From assembly GCF_026210795.1 (NCBI RefSeq), contig NC_089433.1, forward strand, positions 4,340,001-4,404,000: a stretch of 64,000 nt of DNA. Reading direction: 5' to 3'. The stretch comes from Rhizophagus irregularis (lineage: Eukaryota). Position numbers and translations under genes: made by a program. Shown here one piece after another: positions 5,000 through 53,999 of this stretch (position 1 is the stretch's first letter; each line of letters begins with the position of its first letter). Under the pieces are notes generated by a model. The model was not told the origin of the DNA, ran no database searches, and saw only the letters and a list, made by a program, of their open reading frames with translations.

Positions 5000-5420
5000 G
5001 AAAGAGAGCAAAAATAAAAAGGCATTTTCTTTTATTTTTATAAATTTTTTTTTTTTAACAAAAAAAAAATTTTTATGAAAGAAAAAAAGATATTAAAAAT
5101 GGAAAGGTATTTCCATTTTTATTTTTATAAAATTTTTTTTTGACGAAAAAAAATGTCTTTTTTATGAAAAGAGAAAAAGATAAATCAAAAATGGAAAGGT
5201 GTTTCCTTTTTATTTTTGTAAATCTTTTTTTTTGATTTTTTTTCAACGAAAAAAAAATTTTTTTTTACGAAAAGAGAAAAATGTAAATCAAAGATGGAAA
5301 GGTGTTTCCTTTTTTATTTTTATAATTTTTTTTTTATTTCTTTTTTTCAACGAAAAAAAAAAAGTTTTTTACAAAAAGAGAAAAAGGTAAAACAAAAATG
5401 GAAAGTTATTTCCTTTTTCA
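5000..5420. repeat. ~90-105-bp tandem repeat in an A/T-homopolymer-rich tract, each unit with a GGAAAggtgTTTCC mini-hairpin
   Basis: aa(a/g)atggaaag(g/t)t(a/g)tttcc recurs at ~5097, ~5188, ~5291 and ~5395. Confidence 0.6.
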
Positions 5421-11209: not shown

Positions 11210-13313
11210 TTTTAAAATTTAAACTTAAAATAGTAATTATGTAAAATTTATTGTAAAACTTTGGTCATTATATCCACTGATCGGCAGAATTAAGGATTTA
11301 GGTCACATGACGTTTAATCGGCTGAATGTGACATGATCAAACCATTCCCAAATAAAAAAAGATCAAATATCATATTAAAACTAGAATATGCGATTTGCCA
11401 GGGGACTTCGTCCCCCAGGAGTTATTATTTTATTTATGGCTTATAGTTTTAAATATACAAATAAAATATATAAAAAAAAGTATAGAAACTTGGAATATAC
11501 TAATGTTTTTATTTAATAAATTAATATGTTAATTATTTTAATAATTAATATTTAATAAATTTTACATTTATAAAGGTAATGGAACAGCAGCTTTTTGTTC
11601 TAAACGTTTATATTCTTCAATCATTGATTTATCTGTAATAAAAGTAGAAGGATGTAAGGAAGCTATATGCAATTTAGATAAATCTGAATATCTACTTAAT
11701 GCAGTGTATGCTTACCCAGCAGCAAAAAATTGGTTATCAAGACTTACAGAAACTTCTGGTAAAGTTAAACCTTGTGTTTTATGAACTGTAAGTGCAAATG
11801 CATTTTGTAGAGGAAATTGACATCTACTTGATGGCTTTCCATTATTAATCATAAATGTTGCAGTTTCTTTTTTAATTCCAATATCAATAATACCACCTTT
11901 TACACTAAAGGCTATCCTTACTTCTAGATTTTGTAAATCAAGATCAGTTATAACTCCAATAGTACCATTATATATATTTTGATCTATTAAATTATTTTTA
12001 AGATACATAACACGAGCACCTTGTTGTAAACATAAATGACTGGAAAGATTAGTTTTCTTTTTAAAAAGTTTTTGTGTATCATCTGGATTGTATTGTTGGT
12101 TATCAATATAATCAATAGCTGAACTAATTAGAAATTTATCTTCATTTACTGGTAACATATTACAAATAATATTATTAATCCGATTAGCAGTTTGGTTATA
12201 TCCAACAATATTTGTAATATTAAGAATGGTGTTAAGAGGTTTATTATGATCAAAATTATTTTCTTTTTCATATAAAATAGTCCATGTAGTTATAGAAATA
12301 TTACCAAATCTAATTTCTTGTAAGGCATTATAATATTGCATATCTTGATTTTGTCTTTGTAGTTCTTTTAAAAATAAAGGATAAAAGAGTTTTCATTCTG
12401 ATGATTTATATACTGGTGAGCCAGTTACTGGAGGTAATTGAGCTAAATCACCAACAATTATTACATTTAATCCTCCAAATGCAATAGTTTGTTGCTGAAT
12501 AATAGAAAACATATCAGAAATAAAACTAAAAAGAGTAGCTGATACCATAGAAATTTCATCAATAATTAAAGTATCTATAGTTTTTAAATATTTGAAAAAA
12601 TCATAATCATAAAAAGCTAAAGATTGAAATCCACTGTGTGTTTCATGAATCCTTAATGTGGAATGTATAGTTTCACCTCCAATATTTGTAGCAGCTATAC
12701 CAGTTGGAGCTAGTAATAAATAATTTGACCTTTTACTTTTTAAATCATTAATAATTAAATTAATTAAAAATGATTTACCAGTACCAGATGATCCAGTAAT
12801 GAAAAAATATGGATGTTTGTTTTTTTGATGACTTGGGCCACCCAAAATATTGCGAATTGTAGAAAGAGCATTTAATTGATCATTTGGAAGAGTTAATGCA
12901 TTACAATGGGAATAAATAGGAGGATCAATTCGTAAGGAATTAAGTTGTATTGTAAGAAGTTCTGTTATAGAAGCTGGTATTATAGTTTGTAAATTATTAA
13001 TTAAAGATTCTAATAAATTATTAAATTGAAGATTAATCTTTAATTGTTGTGAACGTAAAAAATCTTGGGTAACTTGTTGTATTTCTTCTTGAAATTCTGG
13101 ATGATGATGCAGCCAATGTTCTCAATATGTTGAAAAAGTGCCAAGTAATTCTTCTTCCCTTCTGCAAGGAATTTCAAGTAAAAGTTTTTGATAAAAAAAT
13201 AGTTCTCCATCTTCTAATTTTAAATGTCTAAATCTAACTAATTTTTGATTTGTTCTTTTAATTACATAATTTCCTAATTTATCAATATAAATAAACTGTG
13301 GAGTTGTTGGTCT

Positions 13314-14401
13314 TAGTGCTCTACATGAGCTGGCTCGAGCCGAGCTACAGTCTGGCTTGGCTCGGCTTGAAGATCTGCGCCAAGCCAAGCCTGAAATGAG
13401 CCGAGTCACAAAAAATCTTGGCTCAGCTCAGTTCGAGCCAAGCTGAGCCATGAAAATCCTGGCTTGAGCCAAGCTGGGCTCGAGCTGGCTCGAGCTTTAT
13501 CATAAAAATGTTTTCGCAACATTTTTACTTTAAATTATTAAAAAAAACGTTGTGAAACATTTTTTACTTTTATATTTATATAAAACGCTGAAACTATTTG
13601 TTTCGGTGTTTTTCCTTTTAATTTTACATGTAAAAACGCTGAAACTGATAGTTTCGGCGTTTTTTTTTCGATTTTACATGTAAAAGCACCGGAATAATTG
13701 GTTCCGGCATATTTTCTTTTGGTTTTACATGTAAAAATGCCAAAACTGATAGTTTTGGCATTTTTTTTGATTTTACATGTAAAAACGCTGGAATAATTGG
13801 TTCCGGTGTATTTCCTTTTGGTTTTACATGTAAAAACGCCAAAACTGATAGTTTCGGCATTTTTTTCGATTTTACATGTAAAAGCACTGGAATAATTGGT
13901 TCCGGCGTATTTCTTTTTGATTTTACATGTAAAAACGTCGGAATCATTAGTTCCGGCATTTTTTTTTCAATTTTACATGTAAAAATGCCAGAATCATTAG
14001 TTCCGGCATTTTTTTCAATTTTACATGTAAAAATGCCAAAATTATTAGTTCCAGCATTTTTTTTCAATTTTACATGTAAAAACTTAAATAAATGTTTTCG
14101 CAACGTTCTTTAATAAACAATGAAAAAAAGTTGCGAAAACGTTTCATTTATGCATGCATTATTATATAAAAACATTTCGCAACATTATTTGTATAATAGC
14201 TCATTTGGCTCATAAGCCAGCTTGAGCTTTTTGAGCCAAGTTTGTTACAGGCTCGAGCTTTTTGAGCTGAGCCTAATAACTGGCTCGAGCTCTTCCAAGC
14301 TGGCTTGTGAGCCACCAAGCCAATTTAATCATGGCTTGGCTTGGCTCAGCTTGAAAAGCTTGAGCCAGCTCATGAGCCAGCTTGGCTCGTGTAGAGCACT
14401 A
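13314..14401. mobile_element. Non-autonomous hAT element inserted in the Helitron RepHel gene
   Basis: TIR TAGTGCTCTACA(T/C)GAGC. 8-bp TSD GTTGGTCT (13306-13313 and 14402-14409). GAGCC/GGCTC subterminal repeats. Internal ~58-bp tandem repeat built on the palindrome TTTTACATGTAAAA. Confidence 0.93.
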
Positions 14402-14537
14402 GTTGGTCTAGTTATTACTACTTCATAATTTTGAAAATATTGTGGATAAGTTAAATTGCTAAATTCTTCTTCTACTGGACGATCAAAATATTTTTCAATA
14501 TGGTTTTTCCAATAAGGATTATTATTTTCATCAATTA

Positions 14538-15006
14538 TTGCCATTTTCAGAAATGTTGGCACTCAGTGTGTTGATCATTTCTCAAATCGAACACACTGAA
14601 CACACACTGAACACAAACAAAACACAGCAATTAAAATTGCGAAAAAAAATTTTTTCCTTTATAAAACAAAAAATTAGACTTCGATAATATATTTTTAGGT
14701 AGTGTGCATAAAAAAATGTATAAAAATTATATTATTTATATATATGTATTCACTTGTATTTGCTTGTATTCGCTTATATTCAGTGTGTTCGGTTGTGTTC
14801 AGTTGTGTTCAGTGTGTGTTCGGTATAAATTTTAACATTTTCAATTTTTTTCATAACTAAAAATTGATAAAAATAGTTTTTATGTAAAACTATATACGCA
14901 CACTTCAAGTTCTCATAATTTTTTATATGTGTTCACGGTGTGTTCGGTGTGTTCATTTTGTAAAAATGATTGACACATTGAGTGCCAACATTTCTGAAAA
15001 CGGCAA
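14538..15006. mobile_element. MITE with TA target duplication (Tc1/mariner-type)
   Basis: ~35-bp TIR TTGCC(A/G)TTTTCAGAAATGTTGGCACTCA(A/G)TGTGT. Removing the element and one TA restores the Rep frame (…IRPIYL-IDENNNPYW…). Confidence 0.88.
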
Positions 15007-15912
15007 TAAATAAATAGGTCGAATAGCTTTTTGTCTACTTGTAGGAGGATCAGTAGTAAGATATGTAACAGCACAGGAAGAGTTACAAATAGTTTCTCCT
15101 AATATTAAGAACATTAATTCCATAGATCCTAATCTTCGAGCTACTATATGTTCTTTGAATTTGTCATCTTCTTGTATATTGAAAACATGGGATAGTTCTG
15201 ATTTTGCTATATATTTTGTTAAATAAAAGGCTAATTTTCTAGAACTAACATATTGTATATTCATATGAGCATTCCAAATCATTAAAGTTTGTGGATGATA
15301 AGGAACTATCCATTGATCTTCAGCTTTAATACATCTGTAAATATAATGTTGAGTATCAATATCAAAATATGTAACTGGAGAAAAAGGATGAGGAAATCCT
15401 TTTTTACAAGTATGACCTAAAGTAGCTGAACCTCCACATTTTGCACTACATGTATGAACTTGATTTGCTTTTACTTTTTCATATAAATCAGATTCAATAT
15501 CTGGATCAGGTAAATCAGATCTTATAAGATTTTTAGCAATCATTTGTTCAATAGATTTAGAAACCCAATATACACCATGGGTATGTGCTGCACCACGATT
15601 TTGAAATTCTACTCTTTCAAAAAAGTTAGTTAAATTACCCCATTCTGAATGTTCAGGGTTTTTCCAAATATGTTTTTTAAGTTGCTGTAAACGGTGTATA
15701 AAATGTAATGTAGTATGTAATGGTCTATTTGTTGGAATAGTATCATGATTATCTGTTGCTTTTAAAATTTTATGCAAATGTGTCCAGTGGCTTTCAGCCA
15801 TTGTAAGAGTAATAAATAGTGATGGTAATCCAAATGTTGAAATCATTGTATTTACATGAAGTTCTTTTTCATAAAAATATATATCACCAGTACGAATAAA
15901 AGTAGGTAAAGT

Positions 15913-16125
15913 AGGGATGCTCAACCAACTCGACTCATATAGAGGATAATCCTGTGTGCATAAAGAAGGAAAATATCACAAATCAACAATTATTGACGTA
16001 AAACGTCCAACCAATAATTACCAGAACACTTCCACTTTTGAGATTTTGACACCTGTTGATTTGATCAAGACGAGAATAATTACGAAACCTTCATTGTACG
16101 AGAATGAATCCCCTTTTGTATCACT
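15913..16125. other. ~210-bp insertion of unclear class in the Rep coding region
   Basis: Rep reads …IDESITT [insert] TLPTFIRTG…. Ends AGGGATGC and GTATCACT are weakly inverted. No convincing TSD. Confidence 0.45.
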
Positions 16126-16335
16126 TGTTGTTATAGATTCATCTATTATAAGTCTATTGGAATAACTTGATGTTTTTATAATTTCTGCTGCAGTTGGTGG
16201 ACGATAAACTTCATCAGCCTTATTTTGCCTCCAGATACGTTGATTATTTTGGTGATTACGAATTTTTTCTAATTGTAAATATGACCATGCTAACCATTTA
16301 GGATGAAGTCTAAATCGTGAATCAATATTTAAGAC

Positions 16336-19300
16336 TAGTGCTCCGAACGAGTCGATTCGAGTTAAGTTAAAATTAAACTCGGTTTGACTCGAAAAAAACG
16401 AGTCGATCCGAGTCAAGTTTTAATTATAAAAAATTATCAAATCGATTCAGATCGACTCGGAAAATGTATTGGCTCGTACTCGACTCGAATCGGTCAAGTC
16501 AAATCGAGTTAAGTACCCGAATCGAATTTAACTGGGTAATATTGTATTTTATAATGTCTGGTTTTTCTTGAGAGAAATGTGTCAAAACAATTCTCTTTTA
16601 TTTGAAACTCAAAGTTCAGTTATTGTTTTACACTTTTATTTGACCTAATATATTCTTTATTAATATTAACGTTTTGATAATACTCAAGGTGTATACTTTG
16701 AATTATAGCGCATTATACACATAAAGAAATTAGTGGTAGTCTGGTAGATGATAATAAACAAATAATAAATGCGGAAAGGACTACGAACAGCTTAATTCTT
16801 AAATTGTCAGATATTGACAAACTGTTTAAATGAAGTTAACAAACCATAAATTGAGGAAAATGCGCGTTAACGATGTACCAGGTAAAGAAGAACAAGAAAG
16901 TCAACGTATTAGAACTTCGTTCAATGTTCAACAATATTCTGGCTACGTTTTGGACTCTAGGATTCTTTGTACGATCAGTTATACTCAAATCAACGTGGTA
17001 TATTTTTATTTATAGAAAAGAGACTAGTTTAATTGTTTGGTTTATGGATACGTTATGTAGATTAGTTAGATAATTATTATTTATCGAGTATCAACATAAA
17101 AATAATAATGGAATACTTGAACCCAATTACATTAATATATTTTTCGATTATAAAATTTAAACAGTTAATCACATATGCAACACCTGTTATTCAGTAAATC
17201 ACATTTTTAAAAAAATTACATTAATTATTCAATCCTAATTTTTCCACCACGATTTTAAACACATGCACGCTTTTATAGTTTCGGGTGAAAGGCTGCATCT
17301 TTTTTGCGTCACAAGATCGGTACCTCCAGAAAAAGCTCTTTCGATTGGTACACTGGTTGCTAATTTAAACAATTAAACATTAAATCAGTAAATTAAAGTT
17401 TTGATCAATAATATATTTTTAAAGAATTTACCAGGAATGGCGAGATAATCACGCGCCATTGCCGCCAAGTGAGGATATTGGGATTCATTCAACTATAAAT
17501 AAATAATTTAGATTTAATAAATTATAAATTTTCCAATAAAATTATATTTTATTAGCCATACCTTCCACCATTCCAGTAAATTTATTCCATTTATACCTCC
17601 AGCTACAATCGGACATCCAAGATATAAATCCAATTCATTTTCATTCGATGATCATCATTTTTTGTATATATGTTGAAAGAGATCATCATCGGGAGATGAT
17701 ATATCATTGTCTTGAACTACATTTAGATCTAGTGTTGGCGCATACTGTGTTTCATATAAATTGTAAATATGTTGTCGTGCCTCTAATATATATTCATCCT
17801 CCCAATTATTATCCTTATAGTAGGTAAGTTTCAACCGGGGATCAAGAACTAAAAAAAAAATATAAACGTTAAAAATAAGTAAATAAAATTAAAATATAAA
17901 TGTTAAAAATAAGTAAACAAAATTAAAATAACAAAAAAAAACATACTGGTAGAAATGCTATATACCAAAGCATCTGTATACTGATAGTATTTTTTAAGTT
18001 TGTTCATAGCCTTCATTGCCGCTGTCTTTATAACATCTTTTATATCACTATTTTGAAAATCCTCAATTTTGTCCATTAACCAATTAAAAACAGGAATGGA
18101 GTTTTCAATTGTTGGAAAACGATTATGAGAAACATGTTTTGTAGCACGATCAAATATCTATAATATAAAAAATATTGTAATTTCACTAATTTGTAAATCA
18201 ATAAAAAATAATTATTTTATATAATTCATAAATCATAATATTCTTACATGTAATAACTGGTTTATTTCGTCAAGTAGTTCCCATTCAGCATCTTCTAACT
18301 CCCATCGGCATAAATCTTTATCTGCTGTTGCGGTGTTATCTAAAGCCTAAAGTGATTAATTAATTAATAAACAATTATAAATAAAATTTATTAATGATGG
18401 CAAATATTACCTCACGCAATTCACAGCTTCGTTTGATCATACTGTAGGTCGAGTTCCATCTCGTCCTTACATCAAGGACAAGTTCTTTATCGGGTAAGTT
18501 AGCTGCTCCACATTGGCGCGCAAATTTTTCTCATCTTTGTGAAGATGCGAGAATTTTTACAACAAGTTTACGGAGCTTAGGAATGACATCAACTATTTCT
18601 TTATTTTGGTTTAAAATCTCATCCTCACTCTCAACATATCCAACTTTCAAACTAGATAGTGCATCTTGTGCAGCAAGATTGATTACATGGGCCATGCACC
18701 TAATATGATTATTGTACGCAGTAAAATCGATACCTTTTTCCTGACAAGTTGTTTCTAATGCACTCATTAGGGTATCATTATTTGTAGCATTGTCTGTAGT
18801 ACATGCTATAATCTAAATTTCATATAATAAAAAATAATTAATAAATTATAATTTATGCCAACTAATAATGAACAAATTACTCTACCTTTGTGAGTATTTT
18901 CATGTCATCACAAACACATCGTACAAAAGATTCATATAGGTTTTCACCAGAATGTAGTCCAGATAATTTAACAAAATCAAGTAAAAGTTCTTTTAGTTTC
19001 CAATCTTGGGATATCCAATGTACAGTGATCCCAAGAAACGGAATGCAACTTGGTGAGGTCCATGCATCAAGCGTGAATGAAAGACGTCCCGGAGTATTCT
19101 AATAATCAATATAATTATTAATTAATAATAATATTATTAGTTAAATAAATAAAAGTAATAAAAAAATTTACCTGTAAAGTATCCCCGTATTTTATTTATT
19201 TCTTCTTTAAATGCATTCATGATATCATTGCGGACTGTGTCTGCAGATGGTACTTTAGCATTAGGATTAAGTAAACAAAATAATCTTCGAAGTTGATCAC

Positions 19301-22259: not shown

Positions 22260-23160
22260 GGTGACCTACGATAAGTAGAGAAAATGTTGTTTCAAGATGA
22301 CATTTATTAACCCATGCAAATCAAAGCAAAGGACCTATAGAAAGAAAAAATGAATTGTTAAAAGTTTTTCAAGATTAATAAAAAGGAAATTAAAAAATAA
22401 ATTTACCAAGAATCTGAGATAGTAAAATGAAATCGAAGAAATCTACAAAACAAAAAAATAAAGAAATGTTAAATCTATTTTCAAGAAAAAAGATAAAAAA
22501 AGTTTCAAATTTACGTTATTATCAATCATCATTATAATTCGCTATCTACTTCTAAATCATTGTTCTCATCTTTCTTTTTCGTGTCTTTGTCCTCTAAATT
22601 GTTGTTTTTGTCATCTAGAACCATTTCCACTTCTCTTTGTGTTGATTGGTTAGACTATGGAATCATTGGGTCATTATAATAGAATATTTATCTGAATTAT
22701 CCAAATCGAAATAGGAACAGAAATCTACAAAAGATAAAAGGAAACATTAGTAATGTTTCTTAAGTCAATTCCGAATAGAACGCCACTCTTACAACTTACC
22801 CAGGTAAGTTTCAGGTCTTCAAGGCCGTTCTCTACAAAAACAAAAGAAAAACAAAACGTTAATAACGTTTCTTAAGCCAATTCCGAATAGAACGCCACCA
22901 TTACAACTTACCCAGATAAGTTCCAGATCTTCAAGGCCATTCCCTACAAAAACAAAGGAAAAATGAAACGTTAAAAACGTTTCTTAAGTATTAAAAAAAA
23001 CCTTTGTCCCCAATGAACTTACGAAATCGTTTCCAAGATTTCAAGAGTCCGTTTCCTATAAAATATAAAAAATAAACGTTAATAAAATTTTTAAAAAGTG
23101 AATTTAAAAACTTTTTGATATTTACCTTTCAAGTCGAGTCCTAAATAAAGTTCTGTGCTC
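22260..23160 (-). repeat. Array of micro-exon/short-intron units inside the Helitron
   Basis: About 6-7 GTAAG/GTAAA...TAG introns of ~65-75 nt separated mostly by 30-40-nt exons. Units at ~22720-22990 are near-identical. Confidence 0.6.
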
Positions 23161-25389: not shown

Positions 25390-27669
25390 TATTGATGTAT
25401 ATATATAAAGACAGGTAAAAGAAAATAGGAAAAGAAAAAAATTTTTTTTTTCATTCAAATTAAAAGGACTAGATAATTTATTATCAGTCACCAGAAATGT
25501 CACATGCAAATCATTTTCATAATAAATCGATTTTGTGTAATGTTAATCCAACAACTTTATTTTATAATTAAACGTCAAATTCCAAATGTACCACGCTTGT
25601 GTAAATTACAAAATTTATAGATAATCATGTGTTCTATAAATTTTATCATTACTTTCCATTTTAGTAATTTTTTTTTTCGTTTTACATTTCGTGCAAAAAA
25701 CCCTTAAAAAAAGCTTTTCTTTGAGATTAAAGTTGAGAAATGGAGTAAAAAATATTTTTAACAATAGTAATATATGCAAATTCACGAGAAGAAAATGTTT
25801 TTCTAAGTTATTAATGACGGTCAGTTAGGTAGTTTTTGTGTAAAATGTAAAAAATTGGATTTTTTTTTATTATAAGGAGCTTTTTAATATAAAAAACGAA
25901 AAAAAAGTATATTAAAATCATTTATTTTTGTAAGTTATCAATATCCTCTCGTATCTACAACTCTTCAATTATACTTGTTAGTTATACAATACTATATGCT
26001 AATACTAATTTCTCTTCTCTAGGCGATCTGGAATTATTTTTGATGATTTGGAATTTCTTATTTTTTCAGCTTAGAAATTTTGCCTAAAGTAAAGATAATT
26101 ATTTTTTTTCTCATACTACCATTACTTATTTTATAACTAATATGTATTGTTTGTCCTTTTTTTTATGTAGGTTTAATAGTAGTTAAAAATTATTTTTGAC
26201 GATTTCTTAATTTTCGTGATGGACGTCAAATAATATTAATTAATCAGATGAAAACAAGTTGATTATTCATGTGAGTTTATTTTTTGCATAGATAATTTTG
26301 TATTCATATAGGATAGATTTATTTTTATGTAGAACAATTATTTTTTCGTGTATAATAGAAATTTTTTTATCAATTTTCATAGATAAATAAATATAAATTT
26401 ATTTTTTTTTAAATATTTTATGCTGCCATCAAAATTTTTTTTAATATTTTAATTAAAAATAATTTATTTTTTTTACAAATTACTATAGCATAACACTAGT
26501 CGAAAAAGGAATATTTGGCCTTAGTAAAATTCGGCCTATATTCGACTAAAATTAAAAATTCGACCTTAATTAGCAATGATCTACGATTAGACATTGGTCG
26601 AATAACCAACCATGCTGGTCGAATAGCCATGTCACGCATTACGCGTATCAAAAGTTTAAAAAAGAATCTTATGCATTCTTTTTTAAACTTTTATTCCTTC
26701 TTTTCCTCGTCCTTTGGCTCTATAGGCGCGGAAAAAAACAAAAAAAAATTATTTTATTTTCTTTTTAAAAATTTTAATGTGGCCCTTTCCCTTTTCGTAG
26801 TAATTCTATGGGAATACTGGTCGAAACCACGCACCGGACTTTGGATAATAAGGTAAATGGGAAGGGAAGTCGTTTTTTTTACTTTAGAACCGGTTTTTTT
26901 TACTTTAGAAACGTTTTAACGTTTCTTTTTTTTCTTTTTCTTGCAGGTATTGCCGGATGAAACGAGCTTCGTGATAATAAAAAAACTAAGATTCGTAAGT
27001 AGAATCTTAGTAGTTCTTTTTAATATTATGGAACAGTTACTAACCGTTCTTGTTTTTTTTTATAGGTTTCGGGAAAACGAAGGGAAAGGGTAAAACGAAG
27101 GGAAAAGGGTAAGACGAAGGGAAAAGAGTAAAACGAAGGGAAAGGGTAAGACAAAGGGGAAAGGGTAAGACGAAGGGGAAAGGGTAAGACGAAGGGGAAA
27201 GGGTAAGACGAAGGGGAAAGAGAAAATGAAAGGAAAGGGTAAAACAAAAGGGAAAGGGAAAGTGGGGACGGAAAAAGGAGTACTTTTTTAAGATTCGTAA
27301 GTATTATATTACGAATCTTAAATTTTTTTTTTCTTTTTTATTATTATGGAACGGTTTACTAACCATTCCTTTCTTTTTTTATAGGTTCGGGTGGACTTCC
27401 GACGAATGGAAAACCAAGATTCGTAAGTAAGTACGAATCTTGATTTAATTTTTTTTCTTTTTTTTAAAAAATATTACGAACGGTTACTAATAACCGTTCT
27501 TTTCTATTTTTTAGGTTTCGGATGGGCTTCCGAAGAAGGAAAACCAAGAAACCAAGATTCGTAAGTAAGTACGAATCTTGGTTTAATTTTTTTTTCTTTT
27601 TTTAAAAAAATATTACGAATGGTTACTAATAACCGTTTTTTTCTATTTTTTAGGTTTCGGGTGGGCTTC

Positions 27670-28031
27670 CACAGGTCGAAATTAGTTAAATAGGGTATCA
27701 ATAGGTTATCAATAGGTTATCAATCGGCTATCAATAGGCTACCCTATTGGTAGCCTATTGAACTTACGCCATAATCCGTCACCAATCGGGCAGGCTGATT
27801 GTTAGCCAATTAATAACTTATTGATAACCTATTAGTATCCTATTGGTATTTTTATCAAATTGGTTATCAATAAGGTATTAATAGGTTATCAATAGGTTAT
27901 AATCAGCCTGCCCGATTGGTGACGGATTATGGCGCAAGTTCAATAGGCTACCAATAGGGTAGCCTATTGATAGCCGATTGATAACCTATTGATAACCTAT
28001 TGATACCCTATTTAACTAATTTCGACCTGTA
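27670..28031. mobile_element. Foldback MITE with CACAG termini (CACTA/CMC family), same terminus as the 44563-61686 transposon
   Basis: ~130-bp near-perfect inverted arms beginning CACAGGTCGAAA. 3-bp TSD TTC. Confidence 0.9.
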
Positions 28032-28797
28032 TTCGATCTTCGGAAAAAGTGAAACCAAGATTCGTAAGTAACTACGAATCTTGGTTTCACTTTTTTTTGT
28101 TTTTTTTTAATATATGAACGGTTTACTAACCGTTCTTTCTTTTTTTTAGGATCTGGTGGCTTCCGAAGTATAGAAAAACCAAGTTTCGTAAGTATGAAAC
28201 TTGGTTTATTTTTATTTATTTTTTAATTTAATATGAACGGTTACTAACCGTTCTTTTTTTACTTTTTTTTTAGGTTCGGCCGTTCGGGTGGGCTTCTGAA
28301 GTATAGAAACTCCAAAGATTCGTAAGTACGAATTCTTTGGAGTTTTTTTTTTATATTTTTAATATAAACGGTTAATACTAACCGTTATTTTTTATTTTTT
28401 TTTTAGGTTCGGCTCTCGGGTGACTTTTGAAAAATGAAAAAAACCAAGTTTCGTAAGTTCGTACGAAACTTGGTTATTTTTTTTGTTTATTTTTAATATT
28501 ATAAACGGTTATTAATAACCGTTCTTTTTCTTTTTTTTAGGATCGGATGTTCCGAAGGACAGGAAAATTCCAAGATTCGTAAGAATCTTGGATTTTTTTA
28601 TTTTTTTAAAAAAATATTACGAACGGTTACTAATAACCGTTCTTTTATTTTTTATAGATTCGGGTGGGCTTCTGTGTTCCGAAGAACGGGAAAATTCCAA
28701 AGATTTATAAGAATCTTGGATTTTTTTTTATTTTTTTAAAAAAATATTACGAACGGTTACTAATAACCGTTCTTTTCTATTTTCTAGGATCTGGCGG

Positions 28798-29467
28798 TGT
28801 AACCCGAGAAATCAGGATAATCACGTGAACGGATGAATAGAAGACCGAATGGAACAAGGATAAATAATTAGCTGAAGGATAAATAATTAGCCGATAAAAT
28901 AATATTTATAGTTTAGTTTAGTTTAGTCACGAGATAGTCATATGATAATACATCTTTATTTTCTTATTGTTCTTAAATTTTTATTAGTAGAAAAGTTAGA
29001 AATGGTAGAAATAATTTTCTTAAAATGTATAAATATAGGTGGGATTCGTTAGGAATTCCGCAGTCAGTTTTGACTCAAATTTAATAAAATAAATATTAAT
29101 TATTAAAAGTTATCTTGAATATGCTCATTGTACGCTTGAGAATTAATTAATATTATTATTAAGTCCAGAAAAGTAAAGAAAAGGGAATTATTCTCGTTTT
29201 GTTGTATGAAATATAATAAGAAGATAGGAGAACTCTCGCAGTTTATAAGAAATGAAGTGGTAATATTTGAAAGAATAAATATTACAGGAAGCATAATATT
29301 TTGGGAATATTATGAATAAGTGGTAGTATTGAGAATAAATACTACGGACAAATGAGAAAGGAAGCGAGAAGTTAAAGGAAAAATAAAATCTAAACCAAGC
29401 AAAGTAACGAGAAATAAAGTTAAATGAGAAAGATGTGTTTATCCACGGGTGGCAGACATGGGTGACA
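28798..29467. mobile_element. Solo LTR (probably Ty3/gypsy)
   Basis: TGTAACCC...GGGTGACA termini. 4-bp TSD GCGG. Interrupts one micro-exon of the array. Confidence 0.88.
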
Positions 29468-30809
29468 GCGGACTTCTGAAGAAAGGAAAATCAAGAAACC
29501 AAGATTCGTAAGTAAGTACGAATCTTGGTTTAATTTTTTTGTTTTTTTTTAATATATGAACAGTTCTAACCGTTCTTTTCTTTTTTTTTAGGATCTGGCG
29601 GGCTTCCGAAGAACGGAAAACCAAGAAACCAAGATTCGTAAGTAAGTACGAATCTTGGTTCTTTTTTTTGTTTTTTTTTAATATATGAACGGTTTACTAA
29701 TAACCGTTCTTTTCTTTTTTTTAGGATCGGGTGGGCTTCCGAAAAATGAAAACCCAAAGATTCGTAAGTACGAGTACAAATCTTTAATTTTTTTTTATTT
29801 ATTATTATTACGAATGGTTTACTAACCATTCTTTCTTTTTTTAATAGGTTCGGGTGGGCTTCCGAAGAACGAAAACCAAAAGATAAAGATTCGTAAGTAC
29901 GAATCTTTATATATATTTTTTTTTTATCATTTTGGAACGGTTTACTAACCGTTCCTTTCTTTTTTTATAGGTTCGGGCGGGCTTTTGTGTGGAAAAACCA
30001 AGATTCGTAAGTACGAATCTTGGTTTATTTTTTTTTGATTTTTTTTTTTAATATTAATGAACGGTTACTAATAACCGTTCTTTCTTTTTTTTTAGGCTTC
30101 GGATTGGCTTCTGATCTTTGGAAAAGTGGAACCAAGATTCGTAAATACGAATCTTGGTTTATTTTTTTTGATTTTTTTTTTAATATTATTATGAACGGTT
30201 ACTAATAACCATTCTTTTTAGGTCTCGGGTGTCTCGGATGTCTTCCGAAGAACGGAAAAAACCAAAGATTCGTAAGTAAGTACGAATCTTGGTTTTTTTT
30301 CTTATTTTTTTTTAATATTATGAACGGTTACTAACCGTTCTTCTCTTTTTTTTATAGGTTCGGGTGGATTGCTAAAGAATAATCAAAGATTCGTATATAC
30401 GAATACATGAATCATGTAATTGTGGAATTGTATTTGAATTAGCAATATTTTTTGTAAATTAGATAGATGCAATAATAATAATATAATTATAAAGTATTTA
30501 AGCATTAATAAATACATTTATTTAATAAATTTGATAAAAAAAATCAAAATAAATTCATAAATAAATAGGTTGTTATTAGACTATAATTCGGCTTAAAGTT
30601 TTAAGGTCGAATATTGGTCAATTTAAACCTAAATAATGGTCGAATAATTAGTCCGAATTTGGGATGATTGGCACCCTAAATGCGCCCAAAAATTTGACCT
30701 CAATTTGACACAGGTTAGACCATTATTCGACCTATATTCGACCTGGTCAAATTTAGGCCGAATTGTCCTTTTTCGACTAGTGTGAACGTATAATAGTTTG
30801 GGATTTAAG

Positions 30810-43470: not shown

Positions 43471-44912
43471 AGTAGTATATAAATCCCAGTTCTGGCTCAC
43501 TTTTCTCGGAGTCCAATCCTGGTTACCTTTTTCTTGCTACCAACTCATTGCTCCCCCACCGGCTGTGGGTCCAATTCTAGTCACCTTTTTCTTGCTACTC
43601 CCATTACTCTCACACCGGCTGTGGGTCCAATCCTGACTACCTTTTTATATTTTTTACCTACTTATATCCTACTTATCTCATAATCTAAACCGTTTATTAA
43701 TATTTTCACCTACTTATTTCATAATCTAAATCATTTATTAATATTTTCACCTACTTACCCCAACCGAACAAGAAATAGGATTTCAAAGCCAACGGAGCCA
43801 AAAAAGGTAAGGAAATATTAACCCATCCAGGAAACCAGCCATGGGGTCAATAGAGCGGAATAGCAAGGCAAGCAATTTCTCTTATACCGAGAAAAAATGT
43901 AATTGAATAAAAGATTCATATATAAAAGGTTTACAAGATGTCACAATACAGACCATCACTAAGACGTATACTAGGTCAGTTTGAACTCAACATAGAAGAA
44001 TGGGTAAAGGAAATAATGTGGTATTTAGATATAGCATATTTAAAAGCTTTAGATTCCGAATTAGGCAAAGAAAGTATGTTAGTATCTGGATTAGAAGAGC
44101 TAGTAGAAATATTTGATGAGATGTTAGAAGGTGATGATATATGGATACATCCATCACTTTTATCACGAATAAGATATTCTATTCTACCAGATGAGATGGC
44201 AATATATGAAAGATTTTCAGATATCATTAAGAACTTCTCAGAGGATAAAGAATTAGCATATGCATTATTAGACTTAGTAGAAATATTATCAAAAAAGAAA
44301 CCTTCAACATTCAACATTATAGATTACAATATACAAAGAATATTCACAAATCCTAATGATGAATATAGAAATGAATTCAGCATCTACCATATTAAAGGAG
44401 ATGAAGATATGGACGAAGACACAGATGAAGACATAGATGAAGTAGAGCAGAATGAATTCAATGAATACTATCAGAATCTTGCACCGACCACCAAGAGTCA
44501 GCTGGATAGACTAAAAAATGAGTTGGCTATAACTCTATGTGATGAATGTCTTATGCCAATAACACAGGTCGAAATATAATATACCGGTCATCAATCGGTC
44601 ATATAACTGATTGGTACCTGATTGGTAGCTGATCTGTTACTGATTCATTCATTCAGATACCAACCGGTCATCAATCAGGCATTTATTTCAATCGGCTACA
44701 CATCAGTTGTATGACCGATTGGTGCCGATTGGTGACTGATTGGTGCCAGTTTAACAATCGGTAAACAATCAGCCATCTGTCATCTATATTGGAAGTTGAC
44801 CGATTGGTTGCTGATTGGATATTGTTGACTATCAGTCATCAATCGGCTATCAGCAGGTTGAATTATTGTCAATCGGGTACCAATCAGGCATATGTCCGAT
44901 TGATACAGATTA

Positions 44913-45198
44913 CAGCTATTTGCGAAATAACGGACCACTTACAGCTATTTGCGAAAATAATGGACCACCTAATTCATTTTCGACTGCGTATGAAATTTTC
45001 ATACGCAGTCATACGCATGGTAATATCTGCCCAGACCATCAAACTCATTTTTTGAGTTTTTCATATGTAATCATCCGCAGTTATATCACAATAATTTTAG
45101 CAGTTAACTATGCGTATATGACTGCATATGGCTGCGTATGAAATATTCATACGCAATCGAAAATCGAATTAGCTGGTCCGTTATTTTGCAAATAGTTG
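44913..45198. mobile_element. TA-flanked MITE in the CACTA left subterminal region
   Basis: TA-CAGCTATTTGCGAAATAACGGACCA … TGGTCCGTTATTTTGCAAATAGTTG-TA. The left TIR is locally duplicated. Confidence 0.75.
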
Positions 45199-45799
45199 TA
45201 ATAGATGATTTGTATGTAGCCGATTGATGCTCATTCAATAAATGTGCTTTATGATTTTATCTGATCTAAGACTTATCGAAGAATAAAAATTCGATACTAC
45301 TGGCCGACTTATTTTAACTGTTACTAGTAAACCGAACAATGATGGAAATCATAATAAAAATGTATGTACCCACATTCTTTTATATTGCATAAGCTAGTAA
45401 ATGATTTATTCTAAATAATAAACAATTTTGTCACCAATTGTATTAAAAGATTTAATAATTCTCCTAATTACCCACTGAAAATTTATCATTTGACTATACA
45501 TGATGAAATAATGTGTACAAAATGAACAAGGGAATATACAAGGAATGATATTTAATAAAGAAAAAATAGGCAGAAAGTCGAAGATTTTTATAAAAAAGAA
45601 TATCGTTGGATGATTAAAGAAATAATTGAAAAAAGAAATATTACAATAATATTATTTGAAGGAAGTATTTTTAGAAAAAAAAAATTAACTGTATGTACTA
45701 ATTAATATACATAAAATTCGCAAAAGCAGGGGAGGGGGGATCGGTTATTAGTGAAAAATAGGTAAATAGAATACAAAATATAGGAAATCACCACCATCA

Positions 45800-47828
45800 C
45801 AACACCACCACAATCACTACCATCAATCGTCCATTTCAAGATAATCATCGTCAGAAAGTTGGTCAGAAGGTTAGCCAGAAGGTTGGTTGGAAGATTGGCC
45901 GGAAGGTTGTTGGTTGGAGGATTGATCGGAAGGTTGTTGGTTAGAGGATTGATCGGAAGGTTGTTGGTTGGAGGATTGATCGGAAGGTTGTTGGTTAGAG
46001 GATTGGTCGGAAGATTGGTTAGAAGGTTGGTTGGAAGATTGGTTGGAAGGTTGGTCAGTACTTGTTAATAAAACAGTCTCTTCCATTTCTTCCTCCCCTT
46101 CTCCAATGTCAGCATCATATCCATCATTAAAGGACTTTTCACTTTCTGCAAATTTCATCAAGTCATACTGCTGGTCTTGACGCTGGTCCAGCTGCTGGGT
46201 GACTGCGATCTTTAACTTTCCTTTATATCCGGAACGAGTCCAATGCAGCGCCAACAAAGGCGCCGCCGGTTCATTATTACAAAAACAATTGCCCGTAACT
46301 CGCTCACGTAATTTTCTATTATTTGGTTGTTCGGTTCTTAATCGGTCAATATATTCACGCAAAAATAATCGTAACTTAAAAAAATTAAAATAGTTGGTAA
46401 AATTAAAAATAGTTAGAAATAGTTAGTAAATAAATTAAAAATAGGTAGAAATAGTTAGTAAAATTAAAAATAGTCAGAAATGGTAAAATTAAAAATAATA
46501 AAAGCAGGAAGAAATACTCACTGTGTCAGATCTCCACTTAAGATCTTTAACAATAATATTGTTTCTCCTGTTTTCGCAATCAGTCTCGGATTCCTCGGGT
46601 GAATGGTAAGCGTTATTGTCAATTATTAATTGTAAGTCTTCGTCCTTAAATTTCTTGACTAATGAATTTTTCACCATCTGTAAATGTTTTATTAGTCTTC
46701 CTCTTTTTAATCTTTTCTGTATTAGATAAGAAGTTAGTATTAAGCAAATATATACACTGTACAAAACTTTATTTACTCACGTCGTGGCGTCTGGAATTGA
46801 AATGTTTTCTTTTTTCTTGCAGTTTTTTTCTTGACGATGACCAATTCTTTTTAAGGTGCTCTTCACGTCGATGATGATGAAGGGAGTGAATTATATCATA
46901 TAAAATTTCGTTAGAAATAGGAAATATATTATTATTAATATTTTCCATTATACTAGGTATAATATCATTAATAACGCGATTTCGCTGATTAGTGAATGTT
47001 TGACCCAAATCAATCCTTCTCCCTTCTGGTAACGCATCATACTTCCAAATAACTTCCTTCTATATAAAATCAACAATATCAGTTAATAAATATATATAAA
47101 ATTAATTTGAGATATCCTTATTTACCCTTAAGGCTTCTCTTAGATCTTTTGGCATATCACTTTTCGTCAAATAGAAGGGAGTATTTGAACTATTTGAGCT
47201 ATAGGAGCTGTCCGAATCACTTGAATCGTCTGAACTTGATTGGACTGGGGCTTTTCCCTTTGCTTTATCGCTGATGGCTTTTCTGGAATTTTTGTCGCCA
47301 TCGTTAGTATTTTTTTTTTTGACGGCCTTTTTAGTACCCCTGTATTTTTCATTAGTAGCACTGGTTACAGCGCTTACATCTTCTTTTTCATTAGTGGCGC
47401 TGGTTACAGCGCCAGCGCTTTCATCTTCTTTTTCATTAGTGGCGCTGGTTACAGCGCTTTCTTCACCTTTTTCACTAATACCGCTAGTTACAGCGGTGTC
47501 GCTTTTTTCCATTTTAATTGTTATATCCTCATCTGACGATATAAGAATTGGTTCTTGTTGAGAACCAGCCTGTGAAGAATCCCGTGAAGAAACAGCCCAT
47601 GAAGAAACAGCCCGTGAAGAACCTGGCACCCCATAGGGTTCATTATTTTGCTGTTCTTGTTGTCCTTGTATAATATTCGCAATTTTTTCAAAAAAATATT
47701 TGGCTTGTTGGGTAAAAGCTATTAATTTAGATAATCATTAGTTTTTAGTAATATCCTGATATCTGCTGTCCGCCGATCAACTTACCCAATAGCTCGTCTA
47801 CTTTCTCTAAATCTTTCTTATTGGACAT
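45800..47828 (-). pseudogene. Multi-exon CACTA accessory gene A (TnpA-like position) with repeat-rich tails; probably disrupted
   Basis: Exons containing MPKDLREALR | KEVIWK…DLGQTF..Q…RRHD | KRLKR…AYHSPEESETD…IIVKDLKWRSDT | LRLFLREYID…HWTRSGY. GT..AG boundaries. Confidence 0.65.
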
Positions 47829-48019
47829 ATTTAATTCAAATTTTTTAAATTTTTTTAAAAAACATAAAAATATCCACAGTATAGAAAGAAATCAGTATTT
47901 TTTTTTCAGATCGATTATTTTCATTATTTTTAACAATTTTAACAATTTTCAATTGTTCTAACAATTAACAATTAAATGATTAATAAATTTAATAAATTAA
48001 AATCTTGACAATTAATCAT

Positions 48020-48290
48020 TAGACTAATGATGTAATGATGTAATATTATACGCGAAATTTGCAGAAATTAAGCAACACCGGTATATGTTATATGTTATTT
48101 AATAACATATATCATTGACTTACAACTTTTCTATAATTTATTATTTGACTGTAACGATGTAATGATGTAATATGATACGCGAAATTTGCAGAAATTAAGC
48201 AACACCGGTATATGTTATATGTTATTTAATAAGATATATCATTGACTTACAAACTTTTCTATTATTTATTATTTGACTTTATTATTTGAC
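48020..48290. repeat. ~125-bp tandem duplication
   Basis: gatgtaatgatgtaatat..tacgcgaaatttgcagaaattaagcaacaccgg… occurs twice. Confidence 0.85.
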
Positions 48291-48312
48291 AAATATTATA
48301 TCGAAATAAGAC

Positions 48313-48762
48313 TTACTCGCATATTTCACGTATTTTAATTTTACCGTCTTCATCCTCCTCACCCTCCTCACTTCTGATATTATTTATTTTGACAGAGGAT
48401 GCTAACATCAGAGCACTGCTGAACGAATTTACTTCTTGATTATTTAATAAAGTTCCCATTTCTGAATTATTAAGTAGGGATAGTTGAGTTTCTAATATAT
48501 CGATCTTTTGTTGTAGAAAATCATTTGCTTCTTTCTGCATACTCATGATTTCCATTAACGCACGATTACAGTTTTCTAATTCTACAACCTTTTTCCGAGA
48601 TTCTATATCCCTGATCGTTGCATGATTCGACATTATTTGTAAAGAGTCATTTACTCGCGTTAAATTCTCATTCTTTCGTATCAGGTTTTGCCTAATGTAT
48701 TTAAGGCTACTATGTTTATGCTTTCGGCCTATTATAACCCCTAGGATTAAAATAAAAATCAA
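48313..48762 (-). CDS. Hypothetical coiled-coil protein with a hydrophobic N-terminal stretch (CACTA cargo); start uncertain
   Basis: 149-codon ORF with a heptad pattern. No family recognised. Confidence 0.35.
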   Translation of the reverse strand: MIFILILGVIIGRKHKHSSLKYIRQNLIRKNENLTRVNDSLQIMSNHATIRDIESRKKVVELENCNRALMEIMSMQKEANDFLQQKIDILETQLSLLNNSEMGTLLNNQEVNSFSSALMLASSVKINNIRSEEGEEDEDGKIKIREICE

Positions 48763-49656
48763 TTTATAACCTTTGACTATTTACAAAAAAATGAGATAAA
48801 AAAAAAATGCAGATATAAAAACCGAATATTGTGATATTCGTACGAAAGACCAATAACTATAAGAAAAAACCGGTATGAATATATAAGATAATTGTTAAGA
48901 ATGTTTATTATTATATTAAAGCGGAATCGGTTTATATAAAAGAAAATCGATAACCGTAAAAAAGAAACTGACTTGAATGTAATCTTTGTTTTCACCGACC
49001 TATTAAAATTGAAGGATATGCATTAAATTTTCAAGTAAATTTGTTCCATTTGATCATTATCGGTATACCTGTAATAAATTTTTGAAATTACAATCCACTT
49101 TCAAAAAAACTTTCAAACGTAAGAGATGACCGGCAGAAAGCTGATGAACTTATTTATCATTGAGTTTTTTTATAATCGGCACGATTTTTATTGCTGCTTA
49201 CAGACTAATTACTCATGCATGATTACCTTATAAGAAAATCAATCAAATAAATTATATTGGAACTTTTTTATTGTAACTTTAATGCTGCAGTGGCGTATTG
49301 GTTAGGGAATGTAATACCTGGATTATATTTCTGAGTTCAGTACCTGCTGTATGCATTACTTTCCAGAATATTTGACCATAACCGTGAGTTCTCTGGACCG
49401 GTTGGCTTGGATGCCGTGAGTCCTTTGGACCGGCCCGAGTCTTGATATTCTGATCTTTTTTGTATATTAACAACAGTCGAAGGGTTATTTAACTATCATT
49501 TTAGTTACTTGAATTGAAATAGTCGTGTAACTAATTAATTACTCAAAATAAAAATATAATACATCGTACACTTCCATTAAATGTTAAAGTAAATCTGCAT
49601 ATTTAAAATTTATATTTTCACCAAACAATAGAATTCTATTATACCAGTAAAAATTC

Positions 49657-52600: not shown

Positions 52601-52710
52601 GCTAAATGACGCTCTAAATCTAGATGTCTTTTTCTGGTTCTTTCATCAACATATTTGCCATTGCATTCCTTGCAATCACATGATACTTTATATCTAAGTT
52701 TTGTAGACAT
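49657..52710 (-). pseudogene. CACTA/EnSpm Tnp2 (Transposase_21-type) transposase, frameshifted in a poly-A run at ~51545
   Basis: N-terminal CxCxxC; YAVCPSC; LDWFQPF; GAIYGVICNLPR; LGLLPGP; NDIPAARK; DPMHCLFLG; TPNLH; YGPLYSFWCFSFERMNG. One intron at ~50515-50580. Confidence 0.93.
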
Positions 52711-53999
52711 GATTATGTTTTAGTAAGATCGAAGCGTTCAATGAAAAATTTGAGAATTTCTACGTATGTATCTTATAGCCTATTTATGAATGTCAAAATC
52801 GACGAATAAAGAGCTTTTAATATGTACAATTTCATATATTAGTCCAGTCTGAATAGACTATTATTGCTTAATGGCATGTGAAGATAGGAAATTGTACGGG
52901 ATATTAATGAAAAATTAATATTAATCGGGTTTTACTATAGCGAAACCAGAAAATTATCACGCGGTCCGTCCGTTTTGGTAATTCGCTCAAATGATTTAGT
53001 TGCAAAAATATCGGACTTGACCCTTCTGGTGACATCATCTTGACCCTTATTAAAATATATTATGCGGGTCAGCACCGCGTGGTGGGTTAAGAACGATACT
53101 GACATTCGCGAATTAATTATATTGCAGAGCGAAACGTTGTTCTTTTTTACCATATTATAAGTCTTTTTTTTTTGGTCTAAAATTTTCAGTTCTTTCAGTC
53201 CTTTATAGTAAGTAAAGTTATAAAATCTTGTCGTTGGATTTCTGCAACGACTGAAGTTAAAAGCCCGAAGGCTTCCGAGCCCTCTACCAACAAGGCTTCC
53301 TAATAGATAAAGAACCGGACCTTTTTTATTCCAGAGAACCTCGGAGGCTAACCGATACATAACTTTCTCTTTTTTTTTCAACATAACTTTCAATAGAGTT
53401 TACAAAATGGGAAACAAAAAGCTTCGTAAGGAAGAGTAAGTAACCCTTCGTGTCAGTTAACTTATCAAAAATTGAGATATATTTATAAATTTATACAAAA
53501 AGCAGCCCGGAATCAGAAATCTTATACGAATCTAGTTCAGAATCAGAATCAAAATCGGAATCGGAACTAGGTACATTTAGTATGTCGTATAATTCTGCTT
53601 ATTGTGTTCTAAACATTCTGATTCACTGCTTAATGGTCAATATACAATTGATAGAATTAAACCCGGAAGGCACTCAAATTCTTGATTCTGATTCTAGGCC
53701 AAGAGATGACAAGAAAAGAAAAAGGTCAAAAGAACGACGATACCAACATGTATCTGAAATGCCCAAAGATTTGAGAGAAGCATTAAGGGTAAACAAAACT
53801 TTCGCTGTATTTTTTATTTTTTATAAATTTACTGATAATAATATATTTTTAGAGAGATCTATTCTGGAATCAGGCAAGAATGCCTCAGGAAACTCAATTA
53901 GATATCGAAAAAACATTCGAGCTTCAAAAGGATCTTGTAGTTAAAATGATTGTGCCAAATTTAATGAAAACATTGGATCTTGACACCTACACCATAGGG

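Follow-up and report, generated by a model that had tools for sequence, protein, structure and literature searches.

The 64,000-nucleotide stretch of the Rhizophagus irregularis genome that was analysed (hereafter the window; NC_089433.1, positions 4,340,001 to 4,404,000) contains a gene-less DNA transposon with an interior consisting largely of short introns in tandem, each with its own exon (Table 1). By its sequence features the element belongs to the non-autonomous CACTA/CMC-EnSpm class, having CACTA TIRs, subterminal repeats, no transposase and dispersed copies. Its flanks, TAA and TGA, are one mismatch short of a 3-bp TSD, and perfect 3-bp TSDs (TAA/TAA and TTC/TTC) flank two related elements of the window, while the subterminal motifs are concentrated at the ends, with 4 and 5 in the ~210 bp of each end versus 3 in the 3.5 kb of array. 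The first-pass annotation of this DNA had described a CACTA lacking a transposase and carrying almost nothing but repeats; a Pfam search of the element's two frames of at least 110 aa indeed gave no match, but the array is interrupted by a minisatellite, a nested MITE and a 670-bp insert. The MITE has its TIR in common with a 17-kb element at 44563-61686, the insert appears solo-LTR-like, as judged by its ends and TSD alone, and the reverse complement of a similar minisatellite precedes intron 0 in another copy of the family, locus L013. The window copy is probably ageing, as it carries two nested inserts and shows CpG decay. At 10/12 bases the ends of a tnp2 element in the window match those of the CACTA element; 113 array-derived models compared with 120 tnp2 proteins gave no match, and the array models showed no link to other genes in the window.

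Table 1. Features of the intron-array element, in window coordinates
Feature	Position	Strand	Details
Non-autonomous CACTA (CMC-EnSpm-type) element, 4289 bp	26494..30782	+	Identical 17-bp TIRs beginning CACTA
Left TIR (26494-26510) and subterminal region	26494..26700	+	4 GG(T/C)CGAA-type motifs
First intron, differing sequence	26853..26946	+	Predicted; branch-site palindrome, no donor hairpin; NCBI model P0140 joins identically
Units 1-4	26995..27653	+	Predicted; introns 26995-27065, 27297-27384, 27423-27514, 27561-27653
19-nt purine-rich minisatellite, ~10 copies	27074..27262	+	Within exon 2; several GTAAG words
Nested CACTA-type MITE	27670..28031	.	CACAG ends; TTC/TTC TSD
Units 5-10	28064..28787	+	Introns 28064-28149, 28188-28273, 28322-28406, 28453-28540, 28579-28657, 28707-28787
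670-bp TG..CA insert	28798..29467	.	GCGG/GCGG TSD; absent from locus L009
Units 11-17	29508..30357	+	Introns 29508-29591, 29638/29642-29724, 29764/29768-29847, 29893-29970, 30007-30095, 30141-30221, 30272-30357
Likely last exon	30358..30565	+	Decayed donor hairpin (30393); AATAAA at 30507, 30524, 30548, 30560
Right subterminal region and TIR (30766-30782)	30560..30782	-	5 motifs

The array comprises 17 complete exon+intron units on the forward strand (26995-30357), plus one first intron of differing sequence. About 18 units had been counted earlier, and while the tandem array stands, the number of complete units is 17, since the final donor-like hairpin at 30393 reads GTATAT and has neither branch site nor acceptor downstream; NCBI gene models read through it. 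Each unit is laid out as donor, T tract, palindromic branch site, T tract and TAG, the introns measure 71-93 nt, and the branch A lies 16-26 nt upstream of the AG in 17/17. GT donor, YTAAY branch site, pyrimidine tract and YAG occur in this order in 16 of the 17 units, the exception being unit 10 (28707) with its dead donor, ATAAG. These ordered signals, together with the removal from RNA of all three introns that could be tested, identify the repeats as U2 spliceosomal introns; the canonical GT, branch site and AG led me to dismiss an IRE1-type, tRNA-like or self-splicing intron.

Both the hairpin that the donor forms with the exon end and the second hairpin at the branch point, as originally proposed, are present: perfect stems of at least 7 bp enclose the donor in 14/17 array candidates and the branch site in 12/17, compared with 0/10 and 1/10 of the other intron candidates in the window, and the two-hairpin pattern has 8 matches in the window versus 0 in 100 shuffles. 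Five of the 17 units were folded, giving z-scores of -6.2, -1.9, -5.2, -9.0 and -7.8 (two control introns gave +0.6 and +1.2), and the folds take the form of two local hairpins per unit. The image of motifs caged in these hairpins is, however, too strong, as donor and branch motifs sit at the tips, partly in loops, and are not buried in the stems. Donor stems alter their sequence yet keep pairing, with loops of 4-16 nt, and all the compensated donor stems named in the first-pass annotation were found. The covariation it had also ascribed to the branch point fares differently, for the branch-site stems are near-invariant and hardly co-vary, 45 hairpins having 4 compensated cells (one C-G to T-A change, at a CpG) versus 5 G-U and 10 mismatched; covariation is confined to the donor stems.

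Whether each intron is spliced had been named among the checks, and I addressed this with raw-read runs carrying the same species label, three of RNA type (X19, X20 and X22) and one contig run (X15), over one 551-base stretch in which 3 of the 17 introns could be tested; the first intron within that stretch has no depth, the repeat there having been skipped in placement. Reads joined at the predicted GT..AG bases in 3/3 testable introns, with 9-22 reads each in all three RNA-type runs, and X15 had 0 such joints for all introns covered. The joints observed are 29641>29725, 29763>29848, 29767>29848 and 29892>29971; one intron has a second donor, used by 13, 5 and 0 reads in X19, X20 and X22, and the listed joint of the doubled donor employs the copy within the loop. 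Reads at least 99% identical to the window copy made up 43/1287, 58/1619 and 0/292 of the reads placed in the three runs, most deriving from other copies; the family is transcribed and spliced, and the reads speak for the family and mostly not for this copy. Joints that "go back" by one exon length were taken to connect neighbouring, similar exons in the spliced RNA of other copies and not to be circles, because the loose ends do not match the exon itself. Splicing proceeds in spite of the hairpins.

The splice signals have outlasted the exons around them. The acceptor TAG is kept in 45/45 units with downstream sequence while exon columns vary, the donor G is retained in 41/45, and YTAAY in 11/11 branch-loop variants, with CTAAY on the sense strand in 9/11 and on the opposite strand in 0/11; these unit counts are not independent events, as the units share ancestry. 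Among 21 non-consensus donor-loop variants, only the donor side was kept in 12, only the other side in 0, both in 3 and neither in 6. Signals kept while exons drift point to selection on splicing, although strand-biased mutation could mimic the asymmetry of the loops. No reading frame has been preserved along with them, in agreement with the earlier expectation that a conserved protein is unlikely: exon lengths modulo 3 are distributed 13/15/11 over 39 exons, 52/80 gene models with at least 3 repeats use all three frames, neighbours switch frame in 157/283 cases, and at least 85 R. irregularis "hypothetical proteins" stem from the family with all three frames mixed. Since the introns are really spliced, no frame is kept and the signals are kept better than the exons, what the array produces is likely the spliced RNA or splicing as such, much as the first-pass annotation had proposed in calling the splicing substrate itself the product.

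The family extends to five further loci among 15 metagenome loci, the other 10 having been dropped as single matches without blastn similarity. Locus L013 has the same left element end with another flank, and L009 is near-colinear with units 5-10, its own unit 10 having GTAAG. Viral contigs gave 0 matches. In prokaryote genomes there were 8 single matches.

Several known systems resemble the array in part. Among these, snoRNA host genes such as GAS5 are non-coding, with many short frameless exons, and their splicing outweighs their exons. The many short exons and lack of frame are shared, but here the array sits in a mobile element, the donor hairpin straddles the boundary between exon and intron, and with Rfam matches reaching the gathering score in 0/32 cases and no end-to-end intron hairpin, a snoRNA or mirtron host was rejected. 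In MAPT exon 10 and SMN2 exon 7 the exon end likewise pairs with the intron start around the donor, these stems being lone regulators in coding genes, whereas each unit of the array here has structure at both donor and branch site. Schistosome micro-exon genes (MEGs) also have runs of very short exons, which are multiples of three and encode secreted proteins; here only 13/39 exons are multiples of three, and with mixed frames the identity with such a gene was discarded. Among transposons, SmTRC1 of Schistosoma mansoni is described as having CACTA-type ends, internal tandem repeats and spliced transcripts, also from truncated copies, without a transposase ORF (PMC1636069); unlike in that description, the tandem unit here is a complete intron+exon whose splice signals are palindromic, present in 17 copies with no frame kept. 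Introners and sister stwintrons are likewise families of similar U2 introns with inverted repeats and ties to DNA transposons, reported as single insertions in unrelated genes with repeats pairing both intron ends (PMC12403724), whereas the introns here lie head-to-tail with their exon inside one element; this identity was rejected given two local hairpins, no end-joining inverted repeats and 46/46 units in tandem with their own exon over 6 loci. VANDAL elements likewise carry fast-changing tandem repeats in non-coding DNA-transposon parts, and an anti-silencing role is proposed for the array as well, but the VANC targets described are protein-bound DNA motifs (PMC5735166), and here it is splice signals and pairing that are kept. 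No description of such an array was found in the literature, and supplements of R. irregularis TE papers, such as repeat libraries or tables of small-RNA loci, may list the family under an uninformative name.

My best guess is a form of camouflage: a gene-less CACTA whose tandem exon+intron units yield a spliced non-coding RNA, and whose dense splicing may act as an "intron shield" that keeps the copy transcribed, less silenced and hence mobilised more often, a reading to which I would give a probability of about 0.4. Units would multiply by slippage or unequal exchange, aided by T runs and palindromes; in the pre-mRNA the palindromes would form hairpins that present the donor and branch motifs at the tip, slowing or gating U1/U2 and not blocking them; replication template switching may partly repair the stems, with selection preserving the side of each loop that carries the splice signal; a nascent RNA crowded with spliceosomes would look like that of a host gene and be a poorer target for small-RNA silencing and methylation; and the tnp2-type transposase of a related CACTA could move the element in trans. 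There are precedents: the presence of introns impedes nuclear RNAi in C. elegans (PMC5554785), introns raise RNA levels cumulatively in Cryptococcus (PMC3744415), and R. irregularis is reported to methylate its TEs and make TE-derived small RNAs (PMC8647823).

A rather unlikely alternative, though the one that survives best, is a neutral or selfish minisatellite, in which an ancestral exon+intron with palindromes was amplified by slippage at hairpins and T runs, template switching keeps the stems, and splicing is a by-product. Template switching can create and repair stems in one step (10.1101/2021.04.15.439925), and its marks are present: the donor loop is inverted in locus L007, a loose end with an inverted loop occurs in runs X19 and X20, some loops have been perfected to zero-loop palindromes, stems are extended up to 23 bp and loop duplications are many. 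One-sided stem changes comprise 12 G-U and 16 A-C (p 0.57), without a G-U excess, C>T and G>A are the commonest read differences, and pairs changed on both sides are not in excess either (6 versus 5.0 in shuffles; 153 of 500). The inverted loop and the missing G-U excess suggest that DNA template switching contributes to stem maintenance, and covariation is unsupported as proof of RNA-level selection because it is limited to the donor stem, involves few events and comes with these marks. However, a strand-symmetric DNA process would not be expected to leave TAG in 45/45 units, the branch motif in all loop variants and the 12 versus 0 one-sidedness of the donor loops; only 1/45 donor loops is inverted, and the layout recurs in other arrays whose stems differ.

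It is improbable that the hairpins instead serve as a splicing attenuator, slowing U1/U2 so that RNA is retained and holds spliceosomes or feeds small RNAs against the family, perhaps depending on conditions. The predicted folds are strong, it is the copy in the loop that the joint listed for the doubled donor uses, spliceosome stalling sets off siRNA production in C. neoformans (cited in PMC6643885), and the intron/exon depth was 0.67 in X19 and 0.62 in X20 versus 0.03 in X22, although X19 and X20 are poly(A) runs from unstranded libraries that may include DNA or antisense reads, the depths lack a host-gene control, and the difference between runs may come from library type; the values of 0.62-0.67 fit partial retention as well as the shield. 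The donors are consensus GTAAGT and the branch sites consensus CTAAY, not weak, and a self-silencing trigger in a transposon would be selected against. The cage stalling U1/U2 that the first-pass annotation envisaged is unsupported as stated, because X22 is almost fully spliced and the doubled donor uses the copy in the loop. Very unlikely is a DNA-level binding array, with CG-rich palindromes parked in introns as repeated sites for a putative element-encoded TnpA- or VANC-like anti-silencing protein: VANC target motifs do accumulate by tandem repeats in non-coding parts of VANDALs, introns included (PMC5735166), and the branch stem sequence is nearly invariant, but donor stems change sequence and loop length while staying paired, the subterminal motif is rare within the array, and the kept splice signals are left unexplained. 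Least credible of all is a micro-exon gene for variable repetitive peptides open in whichever frame, since against 22/39 exons stop-free in every frame, 24 stops versus 37 in dinucleotide shuffles, and NCBI model P0183 following the window copy's exons 29458-30380 in one open frame stand the descent of all exons from one unit (chance of being stop-free 0.02-0.12), still fewer stops (7) on the antisense strand, mixed frames, no Pfam match above cut-off in 26 gene models and named matches all from one species.

Beyond the intron shield of this family, it is conceivable, though doubtful, that Rhizophagus harbours a new kind of DNA-transposon cargo, arrays of structured introns whose only product is splicing and whose tip hairpins set the splicing rate, forming a tunable shield (or a trigger, if retained) against host small-RNA silencing, and that several unrelated arrays in the genome would explain a class of "orphan genes". 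Whatever the function, the at least 85 "hypothetical proteins" are likely spurious as genes and raise the apparent number of young orphan genes, and the array offers a clear case in which stem covariation may arise from DNA template switching and not from RNA selection. The dozens of natural donor and branch-point hairpin variants that are still spliced bear on how U1/U2 enter structured sites. If splicing itself is selected, the family would provide a natural many-copy test of whether a transcript is recognised as self, and spared silencing, by virtue of its introns, as the number of units and the intactness of the signals vary from copy to copy and R. irregularis already has chromosome-level assemblies, methylomes and small-RNA data (PMC10234402, PMC8647823).

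The studied element, which is classed as a non-autonomous CACTA, lies in an AT-rich window dense in mobile DNA; a Helitron is present, as is a tnp2 (Transposase_21) element whose transposase piece is 96% identical to an R. irregularis protein. It is flanked by TAA on one side and TGA on the other, has four subterminal motifs at one end and five at the other, and its two frames of at least 110 aa have no match in Pfam; the ends of the window's 17-kb CACTA-type element match the nested MITE, and agree with those of the studied element at 10 of 12 bases. The first-pass annotation had described about 18 tandem mini-introns with donor and branch point caged in hairpins, and the hairpin layout holds, with 17 units after a first intron and the motifs at the hairpin tips instead of caged; each unit runs from exon end and donor hairpin through a T tract to the branch-site hairpin, then through a second T tract to TAG. 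Introns measure 71-93 nt with the AG 16-26 nt past the branch A, the donor of unit 10 is dead, the exons are interrupted by a purine-rich minisatellite (whose GTAAG words may be extra donors), a CACTA-type MITE and a 670-bp insert, and AATAAA occurs four times downstream of the last exon's start. The layout is beyond chance, its two-hairpin pattern matching 8 times in the window versus 0 in 100 shuffles; perfect stems of at least 7 bp occur at 14/17 donors and 12/17 branch sites, compared with 0/10 and 1/10 among the window's other intron candidates, and folding z-scores run from -1.9 to -9.0 for five folded units against +0.6 and +1.2 for two controls.

Features of the window and of two metagenome loci of the family
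Feature	Position (strand)	Details
Fold-back element	1-970	three units of 327 bp whose orientation alternates, giving long inverted repeats
104-bp tandem repeats	4980-5420	12-bp hairpin, loop GGTA; 20% GC stretch; no clear acceptor
Broken Helitron	11712-16419 (-)	PIF1 + Helitron_like_N
50-bp tandem repeat	13582-14083	hairpin-bearing; inserted between Helitron parts
Second short-exon array	22400-23130 (-)	upstream of Helitron region; exons 32-33 nt, introns 70-80 nt
Studied CACTA element	26494-30782 (+)	TIRs identical over 17 bp, beginning CACTA
First intron of array	26853-26946	
Purine-rich 19-nt minisatellite	27074-27262	several GTAAG words
Nested CACTA-type MITE	27670-28031	TTC/TTC TSD
670-bp TG..CA insert in array		GCGG/GCGG TSD
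CACTA-type element, 17 kb	44563-61686	CACAG ends, TAA/TAA TSD; Transposase_21 50549-51553 (-)
Locus L013	1-240 and 575-690 (read on -)	other hairpin introns
Locus L010	1470-1707	donor hairpins continue past array

A metagenome scan gave 15 loci, of which five (L006, L007, L009, L010 and L013) are family members by blastn and the other ten were discarded as chance matches; viral contigs gave no match and prokaryote genomes 8 single matches. The five contribute 29 further units (46 branch hairpins in total) and have unit subtypes in common, arranged in differing orders; their flanks are other ones, and the end of one is related but not the same. L013 holds a similar purine-rich repeat, opposite in orientation to that of the window.

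RNA alignment was restricted to one 551-base stretch, in which 3 of the 17 unit introns could be assessed, and all three are spliced at the predicted bases. Among the best 15 of 63 joints, reads in X19 and X20 (poly(A) raw-read runs) and X22 (a raw-read run from another study labelled RNA-Seq/RT-PCR) number 10, 12 and 9 for 29641>29725, 17, 22 and 9 for 29763>29848, 13, 5 and 0 for 29767>29848, and 21, 10 and 11 for 29892>29971; all four are GT..AG, and each has 0 in X15, a contig run of unrecorded kind in which 25 joint rows at repeats were left out. At a doubled donor (GTAAGTAAGT) the listed joint takes the second GT, which is situated in the hairpin loop and is also the slightly better U1 match, the two causes being inseparable. 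Reads at least 99% alike to this copy are few (43/1287, 58/1619 and 0/292 in the three RNA-type runs), so most stem from other copies and the splicing claim belongs to the family. In these unstranded libraries, intron/exon depth is 0.67, 0.62 and 0.03 in X19, X20 and X22, a roughly twentyfold gap between studies that may reflect either the kind of library or retention that varies with condition.

The retention of TAG after the T tract in 45/45 units amid variable exon columns, of YTAAY in 11/11 branch-loop variants (CTAAY 9 times on the sense strand, 0 on the other) and of one side of the donor loop points to selection on splicing: 21 non-consensus donor loops keep the donor side only in 12, the far side only in 0, both in 3 and neither in 6 (12 versus 0, sign test 0.0005, the loops not being independent). 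The donor G, within a CpG, is kept in 41/45, changed to A in 3 and deleted in 1, losses about as frequent as those at other CpGs; recent single-copy decay therefore looks neutral, and we infer that selection probably acts on active master copies. The claimed covariation of the stems divides: among 45 donor hairpins (42 distinct, rows related by descent), 86.8% of cells pair versus 78.1% shuffled, the score is 0.214 versus 0.090 (reached by 0/500 shuffles) and, four bases inside the exon, pairing is by A-U in 33, U-A in 7 and G-C in 1 and is never absent, but donor pairs changed on both sides number 6 versus 5.0 shuffled (153/500; rows related), and branch stems are near-invariant (19 departures over 45 hairpins: 4 compensated, one a CpG change, 5 G-U and 10 mismatched). 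One-sided changes pooled over both stems (12 G-U, 16 A-C) show no excess on the sense strand. One donor loop of L007 is exactly inverted, a form that recurs among the loose read ends in X19 and X20, and further loops are perfected or lengthened; these are signatures of template switching, which can create and mend stems in a single event (10.1101/2021.04.15.439925), so covariation by itself is no proof of RNA function.

A gene-less DNA transposon would benefit only from aids to the movement of its own DNA, and dense, completed splicing would suit that end. At a probability of roughly 40%, we read the array as a putative intron shield against silencing, by analogy with reports that introns work against nuclear RNAi in C. 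elegans (PMC5554785) and cumulatively stabilise RNA in Cryptococcus (PMC3744415), and that TE methylation and TE-derived small RNAs exist in R. irregularis (PMC8647823). A neutral satellite is less probable; a putative splicing attenuator or siRNA trigger (cf. PMC6643885) is unlikely, and a putative VANC-like DNA array (cf. PMC5735166) still more so.

That the array encodes putative peptides is the most improbable reading. Dismissing it outright would overlook that 22/39 exons are free of stops in every frame, with 24 exon stops versus 37 in shuffles, but all units go back to a single ancestor, and stops are scarcer still on the antisense strand (7). There is no kept protein in the array, in agreement with the earlier judgement: exon lengths modulo 3 are mixed (13/15/11 over 39 exons), and searching with the NCBI model P0124, reached via a frame from L010, led to 85 proteins of 110-352 aa, all R. 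irregularis hypothetical or unnamed, whose repeats are spread over all three frames (139, 217 and 150), with all three used in 52/80 models having at least three repeats and a switch at 157/283 neighbour pairs. Without a length limit, 66 representatives were found (longest 480 aa); of the 24 that were new, a sample of 10 proved to be R. irregularis throughout, and 0/26 scanned array models reached the Pfam cut-off. The R. irregularis gene model P0183 agrees with the element's exons at every letter over 29458-30380, which, with the transposase identity, points to R. irregularis or a very close relative as the source. Two long models, P0222 and P0226, place array exons after a coding-looking stretch that is unrelated, suggesting that the array may trap read-through transcripts.

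The array is neither a micro-exon gene nor, by Rfam scan and folding, a snoRNA or mirtron host. GAS5, MAPT, SMN2 and the schistosome micro-exon genes are comparison systems. The array's family is also no introner or stwintron family (cf. PMC12403724); for SmTRC1, both internal repeats and truncated copies that give spliced transcripts are on record (PMC1636069). Such arrays are not described in the openly accessible main texts searched, nor in passages of papers on the R. irregularis genome and its TEs (PMC10234402, PMC11075540 and PMC8647823).

This hairpin-intron layout is apparently repeated elsewhere in the genome, judging from sequence: the branch-site palindromes of the second array differ in sequence from those of the CACTA array, with stems of at least 7 bp at 3/6 candidates and one donor in a hairpin too, and L013 and L010 have additional hairpin introns with stems of other sequence. 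In L013/L010, hairpin introns with palindromic branch sites stand in tandem beside the element end on the opposite strand, and a 12-bp stem holds the donor of a first intron in its 5' arm. The family may, at less than even odds, represent a novel type of transposon device that works through splicing. The other short repeated exon types that precede array exons in P0125, P0144, P0170, P0175, P0205 and P0209 hint that further families of micro-exon arrays underlie orphan genes of R. irregularis.
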